DNA of 64,000 nt from Burkholderiales bacterium (lineage in GTDB: Bacteria > Pseudomonadota > Gammaproteobacteria > Burkholderiales > JACQAP01): contig JBKJUC010000037.1 of NCBI GenBank assembly GCA_046590325.1, forward strand, positions 3,457 to 67,456, given 5' to 3'. The notes under the pieces are model-generated. The model saw only the letters and a program-made list of their open reading frames with translations, did not search any database and was not told where the DNA came from. Positions 51,921 to 58,235 of the stretch are shown one piece after another. Position 1 is the first letter of the stretch; each line of letters starts with the position of its first letter. Made by a program: the position numbers and the translations under genes.

Positions 51921-52589
51921 TCAGCGTTCGGGCAATTGGCCCCACTGTTCCGGTGTAAGGCGCGCGACCAGGACATAACCGCCCCGGCCATTGGGGAGGA
52001 AGATGGCCGCTTCCCCCTGCGTGCCAAGGTGAAAACCTTCGGCGTCCCAAAGGTTGTATCCGTGCGAAACCAGCACGGTATTGGTTGCCGGGCCCGGCAC
52101 CGTGGCCAAAAGCTTCTTCAGGCCGGCTGTGGCGAGCTCGCGCCTTGGCGCGGCTTCGGAAGAGCGGCTCACCCCGGTGAGCGACGCCTCGATCGTGTAG
52201 CGTTCGAACGCCAGTTCCGCAGTTTCCCGGCAACGGCAGAACTCGCTGGACAAAACTTCTCCGACCGGGATCGCCAGCCGCCTGAACTGACCGCCGATCT
52301 GCTCCGCTTCGAAGCGCCCCTTGTCGTCGAGATTGCGCTGCGTATCGCAGCGCTTCAAGTCCACGCCCTGCTCCTGATAAGCCGGTCCGGTGTCGGCATG
52401 GCGGAAGTAGATGACCAGTCCGCCCTGTCGCAACGCCGAGACCAGTGCGGCCCCGGACTTTGCATTGCTGGAATCCGGTGTCCCGGCGTCTGGCGCAGCC
52501 GCGCAAGCCCCGGCAAACCAGAGCAGGACCGCGAGGCCGGCCATGAGATTGCGTGGATTAAAGCATCGGCTGAATGTCGTCATCGACAT
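51921..52589 (-). CDS. Secreted histidine phosphatase superfamily (branch 1) protein
   Basis: Signal-like N-terminus (LMAGLAVLLWFAGACAA), YFRHADT (RHG-type catalytic motif) and VSHG. Start at the ATG at 52587-52589 avoids overlap with the upstream gene. Confidence 0.7.
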   Translation of the reverse strand: MSMTTFSRCFNPRNLMAGLAVLLWFAGACAAAPDAGTPDSSNAKSGAALVSALRQGGLVIYFRHADTGPAYQEQGVDLKRCDTQRNLDDKGRFEAEQIGGQFRRLAIPVGEVLSSEFCRCRETAELAFERYTIEASLTGVSRSSEAAPRRELATAGLKKLLATVPGPATNTVLVSHGYNLWDAEGFHLGTQGEAAIFLPNGRGGYVLVARLTPEQWGQLPER

Positions 52590-52597
52590 CGGCAGAG

Positions 52598-53500
52598 TTA
52601 GCTCAGATCGCCGGCAACGGCGGAAATTTCGCGCCAGAACTCCAGCGCGGTCTGTGTCCTCCACTCGACATGGCGGCGCAATGCCTTGGCGATGATCGGA
52701 CCGAATCTGGATTCGTGCTTCGCCGCCAGCGCCTGCGGAATTCCGCCGAGGATCTCTTCGCGCGTGAAGTACGGAATCTCCTTGAGCAGCAGCGCCAGCA
52801 GAAGCAGGCCGGTCTGGTAGATGTCCACGTGGCGTCCGACCGCGCCATACTCCTCGGGATCAAAGGCCTCGGGCGGGCGCATCCATTCGGCAAGCAGCGT
52901 CTGGAATACCCGGATATCCGACTCCAGCCGGGTCAGGCCCAGATCCCCGACCTTGAATGACCATACCGGCTCCTTCAGCAGGAGGCGGCGGCGACGGGTT
53001 TCGGTAACGAACACGTTACCCGGGTGCAGGTCCTTGTGCACATAGCCGCTCGCATGGATGTAATCGAGCGCCTGCAGGATGTCGCGGGCCACATAGGGGA
53101 TCCAGCGGTCGGCGTCGACGCCGCGTCTCGTGATGAGTTTTGTCAGCGCGAAGTTGCAGCGCTCGATGATGAGATAGAACGTGTCCTTGTGTTCGAAGGC
53201 GTCGTAGACGAAAGTGATGCCGGGATGGCGCAGGACCACCAGCTTGCGCAGTTCCTCCTGCCAGTTTTGGCGCACCTGGCGGTAAGACTGGTCATGAGGC
53301 AGCAGGATTTTCGCTACCAGCGCGTTGCCCCAGTCGTCCGTGCATTCGTAGACGACGCCGAAGCCGCCCTTGCCCACTTCCTTGCCCATGAAATAGCGGC
53401 GGCCCTCGTTGACAATCACTTCGCCTTTCTCGGGGGGCTGAAAACGCCGCGGCTGGCGGAAAGCCAGGTTCCGGATCGCGGCAAGGCGGGGGGACATCAT
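52598..53500 (-). CDS. Stand-alone Hanks-type protein kinase-like protein with atypical catalytic loop
   Basis: GKGGFGVVY glycine loop and VAKIL lysine. The catalytic loop is HKDLHPGNV where HRDLKPxN is expected, and DLG stands where DFG is expected. 300 aa, with no TM segment or extra domains. Confidence 0.75.
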   Translation of the reverse strand: MMSPRLAAIRNLAFRQPRRFQPPEKGEVIVNEGRRYFMGKEVGKGGFGVVYECTDDWGNALVAKILLPHDQSYRQVRQNWQEELRKLVVLRHPGITFVYDAFEHKDTFYLIIERCNFALTKLITRRGVDADRWIPYVARDILQALDYIHASGYVHKDLHPGNVFVTETRRRRLLLKEPVWSFKVGDLGLTRLESDIRVFQTLLAEWMRPPEAFDPEEYGAVGRHVDIYQTGLLLLALLLKEIPYFTREEILGGIPQALAAKHESRFGPIIAKALRRHVEWRTQTALEFWREISAVAGDLS

Positions 53501-53520: not shown

Positions 53521-54018
53521 CTATTTCGGTTGGGGATGCGGGATCAACGGCGCCTGCCCGCGCTTGAACACCATCACGGTCCGCTTGAAAGTGATCACCA
53601 CGGTACCGTTCTGATTGTACCCGCTTGTAAACACGGTCACGATGCCCACATTGGAGCGGGATTTGGATTCGCGCTTGTCGAGCACTTCCGACTGCGAATA
53701 GATCGTGTCGCCCTCAAATACGGGACTCGGAAGCCGGATCTCGTCCCAGCCGAGGTTGGCGAAAACATTCTGGGAAATGTCGGTGACGCTCTGTCCGGTA
53801 ACCAGGGCCACCGTGAAAGTGGAATCGACCAGCGGCTTGCCGAACTCGGTTTGCGCAGCATAGTGCGCATCGAAATGGATCGGCGCCGTGTTCTGGGTAA
53901 GTAGCGTGAACCAGATATTGTCGGTCTGCGTAACGGTGCGACCGAGCGGATGCCGGTAGAGGTCGCCGACCTCGAAGTCCTCGTAGAACCTGCCGCGCCA
54001 GCCTTGTTTCTCGCTCAT
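53521..54018 (-). CDS. MaoC-family (R)-specific enoyl-CoA hydratase/dehydratase
   Basis: 165 aa hot-dog fold pattern (FTLLTQNTAPIHFD, GWDEIRLPSPVFEGDT). Confidence 0.8.
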   Translation of the reverse strand: MSEKQGWRGRFYEDFEVGDLYRHPLGRTVTQTDNIWFTLLTQNTAPIHFDAHYAAQTEFGKPLVDSTFTVALVTGQSVTDISQNVFANLGWDEIRLPSPVFEGDTIYSQSEVLDKRESKSRSNVGIVTVFTSGYNQNGTVVITFKRTVMVFKRGQAPLIPHPQPK

Positions 54019-54026
54019 TGTGGTAT

Positions 54027-55205
54027 CTAGATCGCCTTGTCTTTTTCCAGCTTACGAATAAAACCGTCATCGAAACCCAATTCGAGCAGTATCGCCCTGG
54101 TCTGCTGTCCCACCGCGGGAATTTCGTCCATTCGCGGCTCGACGCCGCGCATCGTCACCGGTGGCACCAGGGCCTTGATCTGCCCCTTCGGAGTATCCAC
54201 CGCGCGCCAGCGATCACGCGCCTTGAGTTGCGGATGCTCCCAGAATTCCTGCATCGTGTTCAGGCGCGCGTTCGCGATCTGCGCCTTGTCGAGCCGGTCG
54301 ACGACCTGCCGCACATCCATTTTCGAGAATGCACCGGTAATGACGGCGCTGAGCGCCTCCCGGTTGGCATGGCGGTGGCTATTGCTGTCGAAGCGGACAT
54401 CCGTTGCGAGGCCCGGTTGTTCCAGCACGGTGGCGCAGAAACCTGCCCATTCGCGTTCGTTCTGGATGCCGAAGAAAACCGTGCCGCTGTTGCCGGTGGG
54501 AAACGGGCCATAGGGATAGATGGTTGCGTGCGCAGCCCCCGTGCGCGGCGGCGCCGTGCCACCGTAGCTCGCGAAGTAAGCCGGGTATCCCATCCATTCC
54601 CCCAGCGCCTCGAACATGGAAACGTCGAATGCCGTGCCCTTGCCGGTGCGCTCGCGCTGAAACAGGCCGGTCAGTATTCCCGTATAGCCGTACATGCCTG
54701 CTGCGATATCGGCGATCGAGATGCCGGATTTCGATGGCGTATCGGGCGTTCCGCTCACGGATACCACGCCGGATTCGCACTGGATCAACAGGTCGTAGGC
54801 CTTTTTCAGGCTGTACGGCCCATCCGGTCCGTAGCCGGAAATATTGCAGGCGACGATGCGCGGATTCTTTGCCAGCAGGTCGTCGGACGATAACCCGAGC
54901 CGGGCAGCGGCGCCCGGTATCAGGTTCTGTACGAAAACGTCGGCTTTTTTGACAAGACGATCTAGAACGTCGGGCGCTTGCGCGTGCTTGACGTCTAGCG
55001 TCAGACTTTCCTTTGAGCGATTGAGCCAAACGAAGTGGGAGGACTGACCGAGGACGGTCTTGTCGTAGCCGCGAGCGAAATCCCCAACCCCGGGCCTTTC
55101 GATCTTGATGACCCGCGCGCCGAGATCGGCGAGCTGGCGGGTGGTAAAGGGAGCGGCAACGGCCTGCTCCAGCGAAACAACTGTAATTCCCTGCAGCGGC
55201 AGCAT
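54027..55205 (-). CDS. Family III CoA-transferase (CaiB/BaiF)
   Basis: MLPLQGITVVSLEQAVAAPFTTRQLADLGARVIKIERP is a typical family III N-terminus. 392 aa. Confidence 0.88.
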   Translation of the reverse strand: MLPLQGITVVSLEQAVAAPFTTRQLADLGARVIKIERPGVGDFARGYDKTVLGQSSHFVWLNRSKESLTLDVKHAQAPDVLDRLVKKADVFVQNLIPGAAARLGLSSDDLLAKNPRIVACNISGYGPDGPYSLKKAYDLLIQCESGVVSVSGTPDTPSKSGISIADIAAGMYGYTGILTGLFQRERTGKGTAFDVSMFEALGEWMGYPAYFASYGGTAPPRTGAAHATIYPYGPFPTGNSGTVFFGIQNEREWAGFCATVLEQPGLATDVRFDSNSHRHANREALSAVITGAFSKMDVRQVVDRLDKAQIANARLNTMQEFWEHPQLKARDRWRAVDTPKGQIKALVPPVTMRGVEPRMDEIPAVGQQTRAILLELGFDDGFIRKLEKDKAI

Positions 55206-55248: not shown

Positions 55249-55911
55249 TCAGGGCGTATCGACAAAGGCGACGCCGATCATGGCATCCCGCGTGACCAGC
55301 GCCGCGAGTTTCTCCTCCGACCAGCCGTCGGTGCCACCGGGGCGTTTCGGCAATACCAGGTAGCGCATGTCCGCGGTGGAATCGTGCACGCGCACGATAA
55401 TGTCGTCCGGCACGGTGGTGCCGAATTCCTTGAGCACATCGCGTGGCTGGTTGATGACGCGTGAACGGTAACTGCGGCTCTTGTACCAATCCGGCGGCAG
55501 GCCCAGCAGCCAGCGCGGATAGCAGGAACACAACGTGCACACGATGACGTTGTGCACCTGTTCCGTGTTCTCCACGACCACCAGCGTGTAAGGCCCCCGG
55601 TCGACGCCGATCGCTTCGCAGGCGGCATTGCCGTCGGTCAACAGCAGCTTGCGGTACTCGGGGTCGGTCCAGGCCCTCGCGACGACGCGCGCTCCCTGCA
55701 AGGGCGTGCGATTGTCCATGTCCTCGACCTGGCGGCGCACCTCGTCCGCGCTGAGGATGCCTTTGTCGATCAGCAGGCCGCGAACGGCGATCTCCATCGC
55801 GCGCCAGGTGGTGATGGTGTCGTCCTGGTCGGCACGGATCGGATGCCGGTGCGGCTTGGCATCATCATGCTCGTGATGATCGTGGTCGTGATGGTCGTGG
55901 TCGTGTGCCAT
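55249..55911 (-). CDS. Nitrile hydratase alpha subunit / thiocyanate hydrolase gamma-like subunit (cobalt type)
   Basis: Metal-binding claw VCTLCSCYPRWLLGLPPDWYKSRSYRSRV (the C-T-L-C-S-C-Y form is the Co-type signature). His/Asp-rich N-terminus MAHDHDHHDHDHHEHDD. Confidence 0.88.
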   Translation of the reverse strand: MAHDHDHHDHDHHEHDDAKPHRHPIRADQDDTITTWRAMEIAVRGLLIDKGILSADEVRRQVEDMDNRTPLQGARVVARAWTDPEYRKLLLTDGNAACEAIGVDRGPYTLVVVENTEQVHNVIVCTLCSCYPRWLLGLPPDWYKSRSYRSRVINQPRDVLKEFGTTVPDDIIVRVHDSTADMRYLVLPKRPGGTDGWSEEKLAALVTRDAMIGVAFVDTP

Positions 55912-55912
55912 G

Positions 55913-56215
55913 TCAGGCCGGCTCCAGCCAGTGTTGGAAAATCTCTATGTCCACGGTGTCGTCCCGGTTACCTGAATATGCCGGCCAGACTTCGTCCTGC
56001 CGGAAGCGAACGCGATATAACGGCTGCCGCGGCAGTCCGGAGCGGGCGTAGGCCAGCTCTTCGGGATTGCCATAGGTGCCGCAAAATCGTTCTACCACTC
56101 CCTGCTTCCCGCGGATGTAGTAGGGAGTGCGCACGTGGCCGATCGGATAGGCAACCCTGACGGCGACCCGGTCGCCGGGTGAAAACCTGGCCGGCACGGC
56201 ATCACTGGTGGTCAT
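55913..56215 (-). CDS. Nitrile hydratase beta subunit, C-terminal half as a separate polypeptide (ScnA/ToyL-like)
   Basis: RFSPGDRVAVRV...GHVRTPYYIRGKQGVVERF...LYRVRF...VDIEIFQHWLEPA matches the SH3-like C-terminal domain of NHase beta. The ATG at 56213-56215 overlaps the upstream gene by 14 nt. The stop is 1 nt before the alpha ATG. Confidence 0.8.
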   Translation of the reverse strand: MTTSDAVPARFSPGDRVAVRVAYPIGHVRTPYYIRGKQGVVERFCGTYGNPEELAYARSGLPRQPLYRVRFRQDEVWPAYSGNRDDTVDIEIFQHWLEPA

Positions 56216-56516
56216 CAGCTTGCTCAGCTTCCGCCATTTTGCGGCCCAGTTCGTCAACGCTAATGACGCCGCGCTGGATCAGCGTCTGCGTGATCGCATA
56301 AATCCAGCGTTCGTAGTAACTCATCTTTTCGTAGGCATCGACGCCGAGGCTCTCGATGTTGCGGCGAAGCTCGTCGACGGTAATGTGACCCTTCTTTGAC
56401 AGCAGGACCAGCAGCGCGTCCACCCGCTTTTCCCAAATCGCATAGTCGTGCTCGGTAGCCTCCATCGGACCCGCGGACAGGCCGCCAATGTCGTGAATGC
56501 CGCGATAGTTGCTCAT
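56202..56516 (-). CDS. Nitrile hydratase beta subunit, N-terminal half as a separate polypeptide (ScnB/ToyK-like)
   Basis: MSNYRGIHDIGGLSAGP...WEKRVDAL...YYERWIYAI matches the NHase beta N-terminal helical domain (IHDxGG start). Start at the ATG at 56514-56516; the upstream part of the track ORF is a different gene's remnant. Confidence 0.8.
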   Translation of the reverse strand: MSNYRGIHDIGGLSAGPMEATEHDYAIWEKRVDALLVLLSKKGHITVDELRRNIESLGVDAYEKMSYYERWIYAITQTLIQRGVISVDELGRKMAEAEQADDHQ

Positions 56517-56671
56517 GGATTCTCCGCGGGACTGGAATCGCCCTGCAATGGCCCCGCAATGATCACAGGGGACGCACGCATTATAGTCGGCGTCAGCGCT
56601 GCTGCGAACCGGCGGCCGGGAGCGGTTGCGTTGGGGGGGCGCAGCAGCGGGCACCGGCGCCCCGGGTGGGG

Positions 56672-56924
56672 TGGCCGGATTGACTTTGGCGCCATCGGGA
56701 ATCGTATTGGCGAGGCTCAGTGCGCCGCGGGATCCTTCGTTCAGGCCACCCAGTATCCGGATCGCACGGCCGTCGGTACCTGCGATTTCGACAGGAGTAA
56801 GTTTGATGTGGTTGTCGGATCCGACCACGACGACATAGTTTTTCTTTTCGCGGACGACCAGTGCCGACGCCGGCACTTCGACGTGTTCGGCAGCAGCCCT
56901 ACTACAGCAACCCGGACCCGATTG
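56672..56924 (-). pseudogene. 3'-terminal remnant of an RND/MFP efflux periplasmic adaptor gene
   Basis: The frame reads ...AEHVEVPASALVVREKKNYVVVVGSDNHIKLTPVEIAGTDGRAIRILGGLNEGS...IPDGAKV. This is the characteristic C-terminal beta-barrel/MP-domain pattern of HlyD/AcrA-type adaptors. An in-frame stop lies at 56925-56927 and there is no N-terminal part. Confidence 0.45.
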
Positions 56925-57019
56925 TCATTTTTCCACTTTCGGGAAACTTGTGCAGCAACCCTGGTTTCGGAATGATGGTTTCTTGAATAACGCTTATGCG
57001 CCCTCGTCATGGAAGCCAT

Positions 57020-58177
57020 TCAATACGAACGCGGCAGACCGAGCACATGTTCCGCTATGTGGGCAAGGATCAGGTTGGTGGATATCGGGGCGACCTGATA
57101 CAGGCGTGTTTCGCGGAATTTGCGTTCCACGTCGTATTCCGCGGCGAAGCCGAATCCGCCGTGGGTTTGCAGGCAGACGTTTGCCGCTTCCCACGACGCA
57201 TCGGCCGCCAGCATCTTGGCCATGTTGGCCTGCGCCCCGCAGGCCTGGCCGGCTTCGAACATCGCTGCCGCCTTGAATCGCATCAGGTCCGCCGCTTCGA
57301 CGTTCACATAGGCGCGCGAGATCGGAAATTGAACGCCCTGGTTCTGGCCGATGGGCCGGCCGAAAACCACTCGTTCCTTCGCATACGCTGTGGCGCGCTC
57401 GATGAACCAGTGACCGTCACCGATGCATTCGCCCGCGATGAGGATGCGCTCCGCATTCATGCCGTCGAGAATGTAGCGGAAACCTTTGCCCTCTTCGCCG
57501 ATCAGCGTGTCCGCGGGGATTTCCAGGTTATCGAAGAACACCTCGTTGGTCTCGTGATTCGGCATATTGCGGATCGGCCGCACTGTGATTGCCCCGGCCG
57601 GAGTGTTGCGCAGATCCATCAGGAAGACAGACAGGCCTTCGGATTTTTTGTGCACCTGGTCCAAGGGGGTCGTGCGCGCCAGCAGCAGCATCAGGTCGGA
57701 ATGCTGGACGCGGGAAGTCCACACCTTCTGCCCGTTGACCACGTAATGCTCGCCCTTGCGCACCGCCGTGGTCTTGAGCCGGGTGGTATCCGAACCCGTC
57801 GTGGGCTCAGTGACGGCAAACGACTGCAGCCGCAGCTTCCCCGACGCGATGTCGGGAAGGTACTTGCGCTTCTGCGCTTCGGAACCATGGCGCAGGAGCG
57901 TGCCCATGATGTACATCTGCGCGTGGCAGGCGCCCGAGTTTGCCCCGGAGCGGTTCACTTCCTCGAGGATGACCGAGGCTTCGGTGATGCCCAGCCCGGC
58001 GCCGCCGAATTCCTCGGGTATCAGCGCCGCAAGCCAGCCTGCATCGGTAAGCGCCTTCACAAATTCCTCCGGATAGGCGCGTGCCTCGTCCAGCTTGCGC
58101 CAGTACTCACCGGGATAGCCCGAGCAAAGGTCGCGCACCGCGGCGCGGATTTGCTGGTGGGATTCCTCTTTGCTCAT
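57020..58177 (-). CDS. Acyl-CoA dehydrogenase
   Basis: ACAD fold throughout (PEEFGGAGLG, FAVTEPTTGSD, QTHGGFGFAAEY). Start at the ATG at 58175-58177; the upstream TTG of the track ORF lies inside a strong hairpin. Confidence 0.88.
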   Translation of the reverse strand: MSKEESHQQIRAAVRDLCSGYPGEYWRKLDEARAYPEEFVKALTDAGWLAALIPEEFGGAGLGITEASVILEEVNRSGANSGACHAQMYIMGTLLRHGSEAQKRKYLPDIASGKLRLQSFAVTEPTTGSDTTRLKTTAVRKGEHYVVNGQKVWTSRVQHSDLMLLLARTTPLDQVHKKSEGLSVFLMDLRNTPAGAITVRPIRNMPNHETNEVFFDNLEIPADTLIGEEGKGFRYILDGMNAERILIAGECIGDGHWFIERATAYAKERVVFGRPIGQNQGVQFPISRAYVNVEAADLMRFKAAAMFEAGQACGAQANMAKMLAADASWEAANVCLQTHGGFGFAAEYDVERKFRETRLYQVAPISTNLILAHIAEHVLGLPRSY

Positions 58178-58199
58178 ATCCGTTTGCAGGGTCCCTGAA

Positions 58200-58235
58200 G
58201 TAAACAAGGCTGGCGCGATGGCCAGCCTTGTTTAC
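58200..58235 (-). terminator. Perfect 15-bp stem-loop downstream of the glutaredoxin gene (terminator-like, no U-tract)
   Basis: gtaaacaaggctggc / gcgatg / gccagccttgtttac, with its near edge 13 nt past the grx stop (58249). The flanks are not T-rich. Confidence 0.55.

Follow-up and report, generated by a model that had tools for sequence, protein, structure and literature searches.

A split-beta, activator-less cassette of an uncultured soil Burkholderiales genus is predicted to encode a three-subunit cobalt-type nitrile hydratase

We analyzed a 64,000-nucleotide stretch of DNA (the window) from a Burkholderiales bacterium, whose source is a metagenome-assembled genome of 3.69 Mb (98% complete; contig 71), and focused on a cassette of three open reading frames (ORFs) at 55249-56516 on its minus strand that is predicted to encode a nitrile hydratase (NHase). 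In the order betaN, betaC, alpha, these are the N-terminal half of an NHase beta subunit (56202..56516; 104 aa, 11.9 kDa), whose protein reads MSNYRGIHDIGG...ADDHQ and matches Pfam NHase_beta_N (PF21006) at 72 bits (cut-off 21.5); the SH3-like C-terminal half of beta (55913..56215; 100 aa, 11.5 kDa), which ends in IFQHWLEPA and matches NHase_beta_C (PF02211) at 81 bits (cut-off 27.7); and a cobalt-type (Co-type) catalytic subunit (55249..55911; 220 aa, 25.0 kDa), which matches NHase_alpha (PF02979) at 266.7 bits (cut-off 27.2) and the NCBIfam model nitrile_alph (TIGR01323) at 256.3 bits, just over the curated cut-off of 249.85. The best PDB matches of alpha are all Co-type NHases (1IRE, 3QXE and 1V29, with E-values from 1e-59 to 1e-72). 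A first-pass annotation made from the letters alone had proposed a three-subunit, split-beta, Co-type enzyme of the NHase family with the gene order of thiocyanate hydrolase (SCNase), and the ORFs, their lengths and strand, the domain scores, the metal claw and the position of alpha in phylogenetic trees all agree with that assignment.

The three genes are tightly packed. Across the betaN/betaC junction, which reads ATGACCACCAGTGA, the betaC ATG lies 14 nt inside betaN and in a different reading frame, giving a 14-nt overlap, while betaC and alpha are separated by a 1-nt gap (TGAcATG), both junctions being exactly as first annotated; a GGAG motif is found 8 nt upstream of the betaN ATG. The chosen start codons fit the lengths of homologues (103-105 aa for betaN, 100-101 aa for betaC and 214-221 aa for alpha), and also match the independent gene calls in relatives.

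The metal claw of alpha, V124-CTLCSCYPR-W134 (55510..55542, minus strand), carries the ligand residues Cys125, Cys128, Ser129 and Cys130, with the previously noted Co-type motif VCTLCSCY at residues 124-131. Thr126 and Tyr131 form the Co-type signature; iron-type-like (Fe-type-like) loci in our sample read C(S/T)LCSCT. On the beta side, betaN Arg51 aligns with betaArg52 of PtNHase and with the universally conserved betaArg91 of SCNase, and betaN carries Tyr67/Tyr68 at the catalytic tyrosine position, while betaC holds an invariant block, His27-x-Arg29...Tyr33-x-Arg35, in which Arg29 is the second active-site arginine. In PtNHase, beta supplies betaArg52, betaArg157 and betaTyr68 to the active site, and betaN Arg51, betaC Arg29 and betaN Tyr67/68 align with these. 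BetaN Arg51 and betaC His27, Arg29 and Tyr33 are 100% conserved in the 98 loci of the split-beta clade described below, and these residues, together with betaN Tyr67/68 and betaC Arg35, are invariant or nearly so across all NHase classes. Between them, the two beta pieces thus hold every active-site residue that a single beta chain supplies.

Next, we compared the division of beta with homologues. Length-restricted searches returned 3848 betaN-like and 4884 betaC-like small-protein clusters, nearly all of which measure 100-105 aa and share 70-93% identity with the window pieces, along with more than 8000 alpha-like clusters, most of them ~80% identical. Independent gene calls on long contigs of two relatives recover all three genes along with the 14-nt overlap (betaN/betaC at 7393-7707/7694-7999 in locus L003 and 7404-7715/7702-8004 in L005), and annotations of complete genomes from cultured bacteria (Streptomyces, Rhizobium and Microvirga) likewise keep the beta pieces separate. 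Against the fused-beta model TIGR03888, betaN spans positions 2-100 and betaC positions 134-226, and the linker between them is missing; a frameshift within a fused gene would have kept this linker. Taken together, these lines of evidence exclude a frameshift. Median identities to relatives (83% for alpha, 78% for betaN and 74% for betaC) are on par with those of neighboring genes (88% for grxD and 58% for prmC), indicating purifying selection. All three genes are intact, their translation is coupled, and the selection acting on them is purifying. A split beta is no rarity either, being the usual arrangement in a very large clade of bacteria.

To place the cassette within the family, we sampled ~160 alpha loci and used profile searches to class the beta domains that surround each of them; the sample draws on 401 genomes of the same order, on named genomes from various phyla and on plasmids that cultured bacteria carry. 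Writing A for alpha, N and C for the separate beta halves, NC for fused beta and n for a beta-N-like accessory gene, we found an essentially perfect association between gene architecture and the residue that follows CSCYP in the claw. Loci with a split beta and no accessory gene have Arg at this position (Lys in one locus), as the window does, and occur in the orders N-C-A, C-A-N (Rhizobiales and Paraburkholderia) and C-A alone (Binatia and Nitrospinota). Loci with a fused beta and an accessory gene (A-NC-n or NC-A-n) have Trp (CSCYPW), as do a few loci in which a split beta follows alpha and is accompanied by the accessory gene (A-N-C-n).

Phylogenetic trees of alpha (81 and 164 rows), rooted on Fe-type-like sequences, resolve two sister clades, namely a classical YPW clade and a split/YPR clade, the latter with Shimodaira-Hasegawa-like approximate likelihood ratio test (SH-aLRT) support of 99 in the 81-row tree and 91 in the 164-row tree. 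The split clade comprises the SCNases, a Streptomyces N-C-A operon, Rhizobiales C-A-N operons, several other groups and the subclade of the window, whose 36 rows read YPRW or YPRF and have a support of 100. The SCNases form one long-branched subclade (support 99-100). The alpha phylogeny, which the first-pass annotation had proposed as a check, groups the window enzyme with true SCNases in one strongly supported clade.

Several loci of the sample depart from the common layouts. The A-N-C-n loci (L075, L081, L151, L164 and L170) lie inside the classical YPW clade and represent a second, independent split of beta. At L091 (contig G345:C71), a 378-aa frame fuses a beta-N-half domain (residues 40-145) ahead of an alpha domain (185-373) with the claw CSCYPRN, and no betaC was found nearby. 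Four C-A loci (L131, L132 and L137 from Binatia and Thermodesulfobacteriota, and L140 from Nitrospinota) have no beta N-half within ~2 kb. Among cultured relatives, the operons of Streptomyces sp. NBC_01176 (L176), Microvirga terrae (L177) and Rhizobium ruizarguesonis (L178) are all plasmid-borne and are adjoined by a cobalt transporter gene (HoxN/NiCoT or CbtA/CbtB); an aquaporin gene follows the operon in the Streptomyces and Rhizobium loci, and a cytochrome P460 gene also adjoins it in Rhizobium.

The genome that carries the cassette holds one NHase. A search of this 98%-complete genome for an activator with TIGR03889 returned only betaN itself (~20.4-20.7 bits) and a 12.8-bit fragment with stops, and no beta-N-like ORF is present downstream of alpha. 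By analogy with the three-subunit NHase of Streptomyces canus, whose AnhD subunit corresponds to betaN (PMC7329996), betaN probably acts as a built-in chaperone that works by self-subunit swapping, a role that would explain the missing activator; this suggestion draws on the absence of an activator and on the weak similarity of betaN to TIGR03889 (~20.7 bits). We also considered the His/Asp-rich N-terminal tail of alpha (~24 aa, MAHDHDHHDHDHHEHDDAKPHRH; 55843..55911, minus strand) as a substitute for the activator and rejected it, as similar tails are found in most Co-type alphas of every architecture, including SCNases, and are equally frequent on alphas with an activator in the operon.

Collectively, these findings lead us to predict, with a probability of roughly 0.85, that the cassette encodes a functional heterotrimeric Co-type nitrile hydratase which converts a carbon-nitrogen triple bond to the corresponding amide. 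In the mechanism that we propose, alpha, betaN and betaC would assemble into a heterotrimer, probably as a dimer of trimers, and a non-corrin Co(III) would be bound by Cys125, Cys128, Ser129 and Cys130. As in other Co-type NHases, Cys128 would be oxidized to a sulfinate and Cys130 to a sulfenate, with both oxidized cysteines held by the two beta arginines, while betaN may double as metallochaperone and subunit-swapping partner in the manner of S. canus AnhD (PMC7329996).

Several observations weigh against this prediction. Even the nearest homologues from cultured organisms share just 55-61% identity in alpha and 34-46% in the beta pieces, the YPRW subclade is without any assayed enzyme, and the likeness to AnhD and its partners AnhE and AnhA draws on a published description and on Streptomyces sp. 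NBC_01176 as a proxy. None of the 13 amidase-signature genes of the genome adjoins the cassette, nor does a cobalt transporter gene, for which the genome shows only weak NicO-type matches and no CbtA. Finally, given the pocket arginines that recur in SCNase, the substrate could be a non-classical one.

The genomic setting of the cassette is highly conserved. Close relatives of alpha (76-98% identity) all come from uncultured Burkholderiales or Betaproteobacteria, mostly from soil; the best alpha matches among cultured organisms stand at 57-61% identity. Of the 24 genomes searched within the genus, 22 yielded an alpha homologue, 19 of them at high identity. The cassette always lies within the block prmC-grxD-(ACAD)-betaN-betaC-alpha-(CoA-transferase)-(MaoC hydratase)-kinase, where ACAD is an acyl-CoA dehydrogenase, CoA is coenzyme A and parentheses mark genes present in most relatives; all three of these CoA genes are missing in L003/L106 and L112-L115, and only some are present in L005 and L100. 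The cassette thus belongs to the syntenic core of an uncultured Burkholderiales genus from soil. At this site the NHase stays constant while the CoA genes around it vary, for which reason we rejected the idea that the NHase had been inserted into a pre-existing ACAD/CoA-transferase/MaoC cluster.

In the window, the ACAD gene (57020..58207) lies upstream of betaN, a family III CoA-transferase gene (54027..55205) lies 43 nt downstream of alpha, and a MaoC/Ich-like enoyl-CoA hydratase gene (53521..54018) follows 8 nt further on, all on the minus strand. We treat these genes as context: the ACAD gene adjoins the cassette in many though not all relatives, and the presence of the other two varies among relatives, every one of which retains the NHase cassette. 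One alternative that follows from this setting is that the enzyme hydrates a small anionic or carboxylated nitrile, whose acid or amide product would then be passed to the flanking CoA-transferase, ACAD and MaoC hydratase in a single catabolic pathway. The shared strand and the short gaps fit such a scheme, as does the fact that ACAD-NHase-CoA-transferase-MaoC is the commonest layout among close relatives, and the pocket offers extra arginines relative to classical NHases. We nevertheless consider this pathway unlikely, given that the NHase stands at the same place in relatives that lack all three CoA genes or keep only some of them, that the cluster contains no amidase, and that none of the CoA genes reaches a curated equivalog cut-off. 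The frequent adjacency itself counts for little as evidence of a pathway, because all examples share one syntenic block (prmC-grxD through kinase) of related genomes, so that their co-occurrence is not independent.

The same pocket residues bear on the YPRW subclade as a whole, whose genes usually stand between an ACAD gene and a CoA-transferase/MaoC pair and whose substrate might differ from those of the NHases studied so far. A candidate is a small natural nitrile that is polar or carboxylated, for instance a cyano-acid, bound by alpha Arg133 and betaN Arg52 and Arg70, with a product that enters CoA-dependent catabolism. We hold this to be unlikely; if true, the subclade would represent a new specificity in the same clade from which thiocyanate hydrolase arose.

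As to the ACAD itself, it reads VAPIST, so that Pro occupies the place of the catalytic Glu found in the YEG motif of most ACADs, and a Glu is retained at the base position typical of isovaleryl-CoA dehydrogenase (NAER). Its best NCBIfam matches, all far below cut-off, are acryloyl-CoA reductase, glutaryl-CoA dehydrogenase and 3-sulfinopropanoyl-CoA desulfinase. We considered it as a 3-sulfinopropionyl-CoA desulfinase, which would have offered a sulfur link to SCNase, and rejected this because its score, 199 bits, falls far short of the cut-off of 600 and PDB 5AF7 ranks low.

A second alternative, raised by the likeness to SCNase that had been noted at first, is that the cassette encodes a short-subunit version of ScnB-ScnA-ScnC that hydrolyzes thiocyanate (SCN-) to COS and NH3. 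The gene order and the beta split are indeed the same, both enzymes fall in one large clade of the alpha trees, alpha Arg133 aligns with SCNase gammaArg136 where classical Co-type NHases have Trp, and betaN Arg52 and Arg70 are common to SCNases and the split clade while being variable in classical enzymes. The correspondence of Arg133 to gammaArg136 is fixed by PDB entries 3VYG and 2DD4, whose sole difference is R136W within CSCYPR; however, Arg133 does not define SCNases, because the whole split clade has it. Yamanaka et al. reportedly showed in 2013 that betaArg90 and gammaArg136 control SCNase selectivity. In the alignment to 2DD4_B, betaN Leu50 falls at the betaArg90 position and Arg52 at Arg92, and position 50 is Arg in 7/7 SCNases and Leu in 77 of the 98 other split-clade loci. 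The pocket-residue comparison suggested by the first-pass annotation therefore returns conserved beta arginines alongside the replacement of SCNase betaArg90 by Leu50, and the predicted pocket is more arginine-rich than that of classical NHases (alpha Arg133, betaN Arg52 and Arg70), yet it is not the SCNase pocket.

Sequence models and operon comparisons separate the two enzymes further. Alpha scores ~225 bits (225.1) against the SCNase gamma model TIGR03887, below the equivalog cut-off of 291.45, and within the order sample there is a clean gap between 7 genomes at 338-400 bits and all others, including the window (224 bits in this sample), at no more than 235 bits. Compared with the SCNase operon L025, which is ~95% identical to the Thiobacillus thioparus enzyme of PDB 2DD4 and encodes ScnB (159 aa), ScnA (~123 aa), ScnC (244 aa) and an accessory protein (141 aa), the window reaches only 46% identity for alpha/ScnC, 32% for betaN/ScnB and 33% for betaC/ScnA. 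Alignments to the PDB chains begin at ScnB residue 45 and ScnA residue 34, so that the extra length of the SCNase subunits is N-terminal and absent from the window pieces; the remark that the beta pieces are shorter than ScnB and ScnA holds as well against the PDB chains (104 and 100 aa versus 157 and 126 aa). The P15K-like downstream accessory ORF of 6/7 SCNase loci is absent at the window, no sulfur-oxidation context was seen around the cassette, and the SCNases stand in their own well-supported subclade. Judged by these features, the window enzyme is not an SCNase orthologue, and thiocyanate hydrolysis as its function is highly improbable: the gene order and the split noted at first stand, and the clade and Arg133 are shared as well, but the TIGR03887 score, Leu50 and the missing accessory gene speak against orthology.

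The last alternative is that an ordinary beta gene only looks divided, through a frameshift introduced by sequencing or assembly, or is decaying into a pseudogene. The first-pass annotation had named a frameshift as its own refuter, and the possibility might be entertained for a metagenome-assembled genome in 275 contigs. It can be dismissed: the recurrence of the same two ORFs, lengths and 14-nt overlap in independent assemblies and thousands of protein clusters, the separate beta pieces of cultured complete genomes, the missing linker and the conservation of both halves at about the level of neighboring housekeeping genes exclude it.

With the cassette read as a heterotrimeric Co-type nitrile hydratase, we also recorded features of its surroundings. 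A candidate sigma-70-like promoter (TTCGCA-17-TATAAT, 10/12 matches; 56580..56608, minus strand) lies ~64 nt upstream of the betaN ATG; such matches occur once in 5 kb here against 1.6 expected by chance, so that this one is not significant alone. It sits in DNA that is unusual among relatives, in that the ACAD stop and the betaN start are ~500 nt apart in the window (56517-57019) and in the 98%-identical relative L096, compared with only ~40-90 nt in other relatives. This extra DNA is open in the betaN frame back to a stop at 56925-56927, and a Pfam search of the 136 in-frame codons upstream of betaN gave no match. At the other end of the block (51921-53500, minus strand), a protein-kinase-like gene, usually together with a histidine-phosphatase-fold gene, follows the NHase block in nearly all relatives and belongs to the same conserved stretch of synteny.

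Within the proteins, a profile built from betaN also matches the N-terminal helical region of split-clade alphas at 22-54 bits, which in the window alpha covers residues ~26-85 (WRAMEIAVRGLLIDKGILSADEVRRQVEDM against WEKRVDALLVLLSKKGHITVDELRRNIESL) and suggests an old internal homology between the N-terminal helices of alpha and beta. Other NHases were found in related genomes. In three genomes of the same genus (loci L076, L077 and L078 in G016, G020 and G024), the split cassette was not among the matches; these genomes instead carry a Fe-type-like NHase with a C(S/T)LCSCT claw, alpha followed by a fused beta and no accessory gene. Seven genomes of the sister genus g16 (G039, G097, G146, G189, G347, G382 and G418) carry 4-6 NHase alpha paralogues each, mostly in the split N-C-A layout.

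Together, these results indicate that a split beta, a missing activator and the replacement of Trp by Arg beside the claw travel together and are the hallmark of a single clade that is ancient, very large and scarcely studied, of which thiocyanate hydrolase is one specialized twig. The YPRW subclade is abundant in soil metagenomes, with thousands of protein clusters at ~80% identity and no cultured representative, and its substrate bears on the turnover of nitriles and pseudohalides in soil. NHases that need no helper gene are, in addition, convenient candidates for biocatalysis.

Finally, we compared the cassette with known systems. The classical Co-type NHases of Pseudonocardia thermophila (1IRE), Pseudomonas putida (3QXE) and Bacillus smithii (1V29) have the same fold families, claw and catalytic Arg and Tyr residues, but differ in their fused beta with a linker, their separate activator gene, the Trp after CSCYP and their place in the sister clade. 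ScnB-ScnA-ScnC of Thiobacillus thioparus (2DD4) has the same split, order and clade, the CSCYPR motif, betaN Arg52 and Arg70 and a His/Asp-rich alpha N-terminus, and differs in the N-terminal extensions of ScnB (40 aa) and ScnA (~30 aa), which the window pieces lack. Toyocamycin NHase (ToyJKL) is set apart by its layout: alpha (toyJ) is first in the operon, within a biosynthetic cluster for a nucleoside antibiotic (a pyrrolopyrimidine), whereas the window alpha is last and its neighbors are grxD, ACAD, CoA-transferase, MaoC and kinase genes. ToyJ alone is reported to be active. ToyJKL, from Streptomyces rimosus, resembles the window enzyme in having three subunits and in dividing the beta function between two small polypeptides (Nelp et al. 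2014, as cited in PMC7329996).

Among split-beta NHases of cultured bacteria, the plasmid-encoded three-subunit enzyme of Microvirga flocculans CGMCC 1.16731 has alpha between both beta genes (Zhao et al. 2020, cited in PMC11573777), in agreement with the C-A-N loci of our sample. The Microvirga and Rhizobiales systems have in common with the window a split beta, a Co-type CSCYPR alpha and the lack of an activator, and alpha is 60-61% identical to its homologues in Microvirga terrae and Rhizobium ruizarguesonis, the highest values among cultured organisms; they differ in their C-A-N order and adjacent cobalt transporter, compared with N-C-A and no adjacent transporter in the window. Enzymes of this three-subunit, activator-less kind are known to hydrate nitriles (PMC7329996; PMC11573777).

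In architecture, the known enzyme nearest to the cassette is ScNHase of Streptomyces canus CGMCC 13662, a three-subunit Co-type NHase whose host genome lacks an activator (Guo et al. 2019; PMC7329996); the first-pass annotation had left it out of its comparison. ScNHase is encoded in the order AnhD (beta N-half, 10.4 kDa), AnhE (beta C-half, 11.35 kDa) and AnhA (alpha, 21.3 kDa) and forms AnhD2E2A2; cobalt can enter AnhA directly under reducing conditions, and the apo-enzyme is activated through self-subunit swapping with an AnhD2A complex (PMC7329996). It accepts acetamiprid, thiacloprid and benzonitrile (PMC7329996), xenobiotics that say little about the natural substrate of the window enzyme. 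The two systems have the same gene order, metal type and lack of an activator, with similar subunit sizes (11.9, 11.5 and 25.0 kDa in the window, where the 25.0 kDa of alpha includes the 24-aa His tail, against 21.3 kDa for AnhA). They come from different phyla and fall in different subclades, and the window has YPRW and betaN Leu50 where the Streptomyces homologue has YPRP and Lys. That homologue, the N-C-A plasmid operon of Streptomyces sp. NBC_01176, is 55% (alpha), 40% (betaN) and 43% (betaC) identical to the window cassette and lies in the same split/YPR clade. A three-subunit, activator-less Co-type NHase has thus already been characterized in Streptomyces, and the window enzyme is an ordinary further member of this group.

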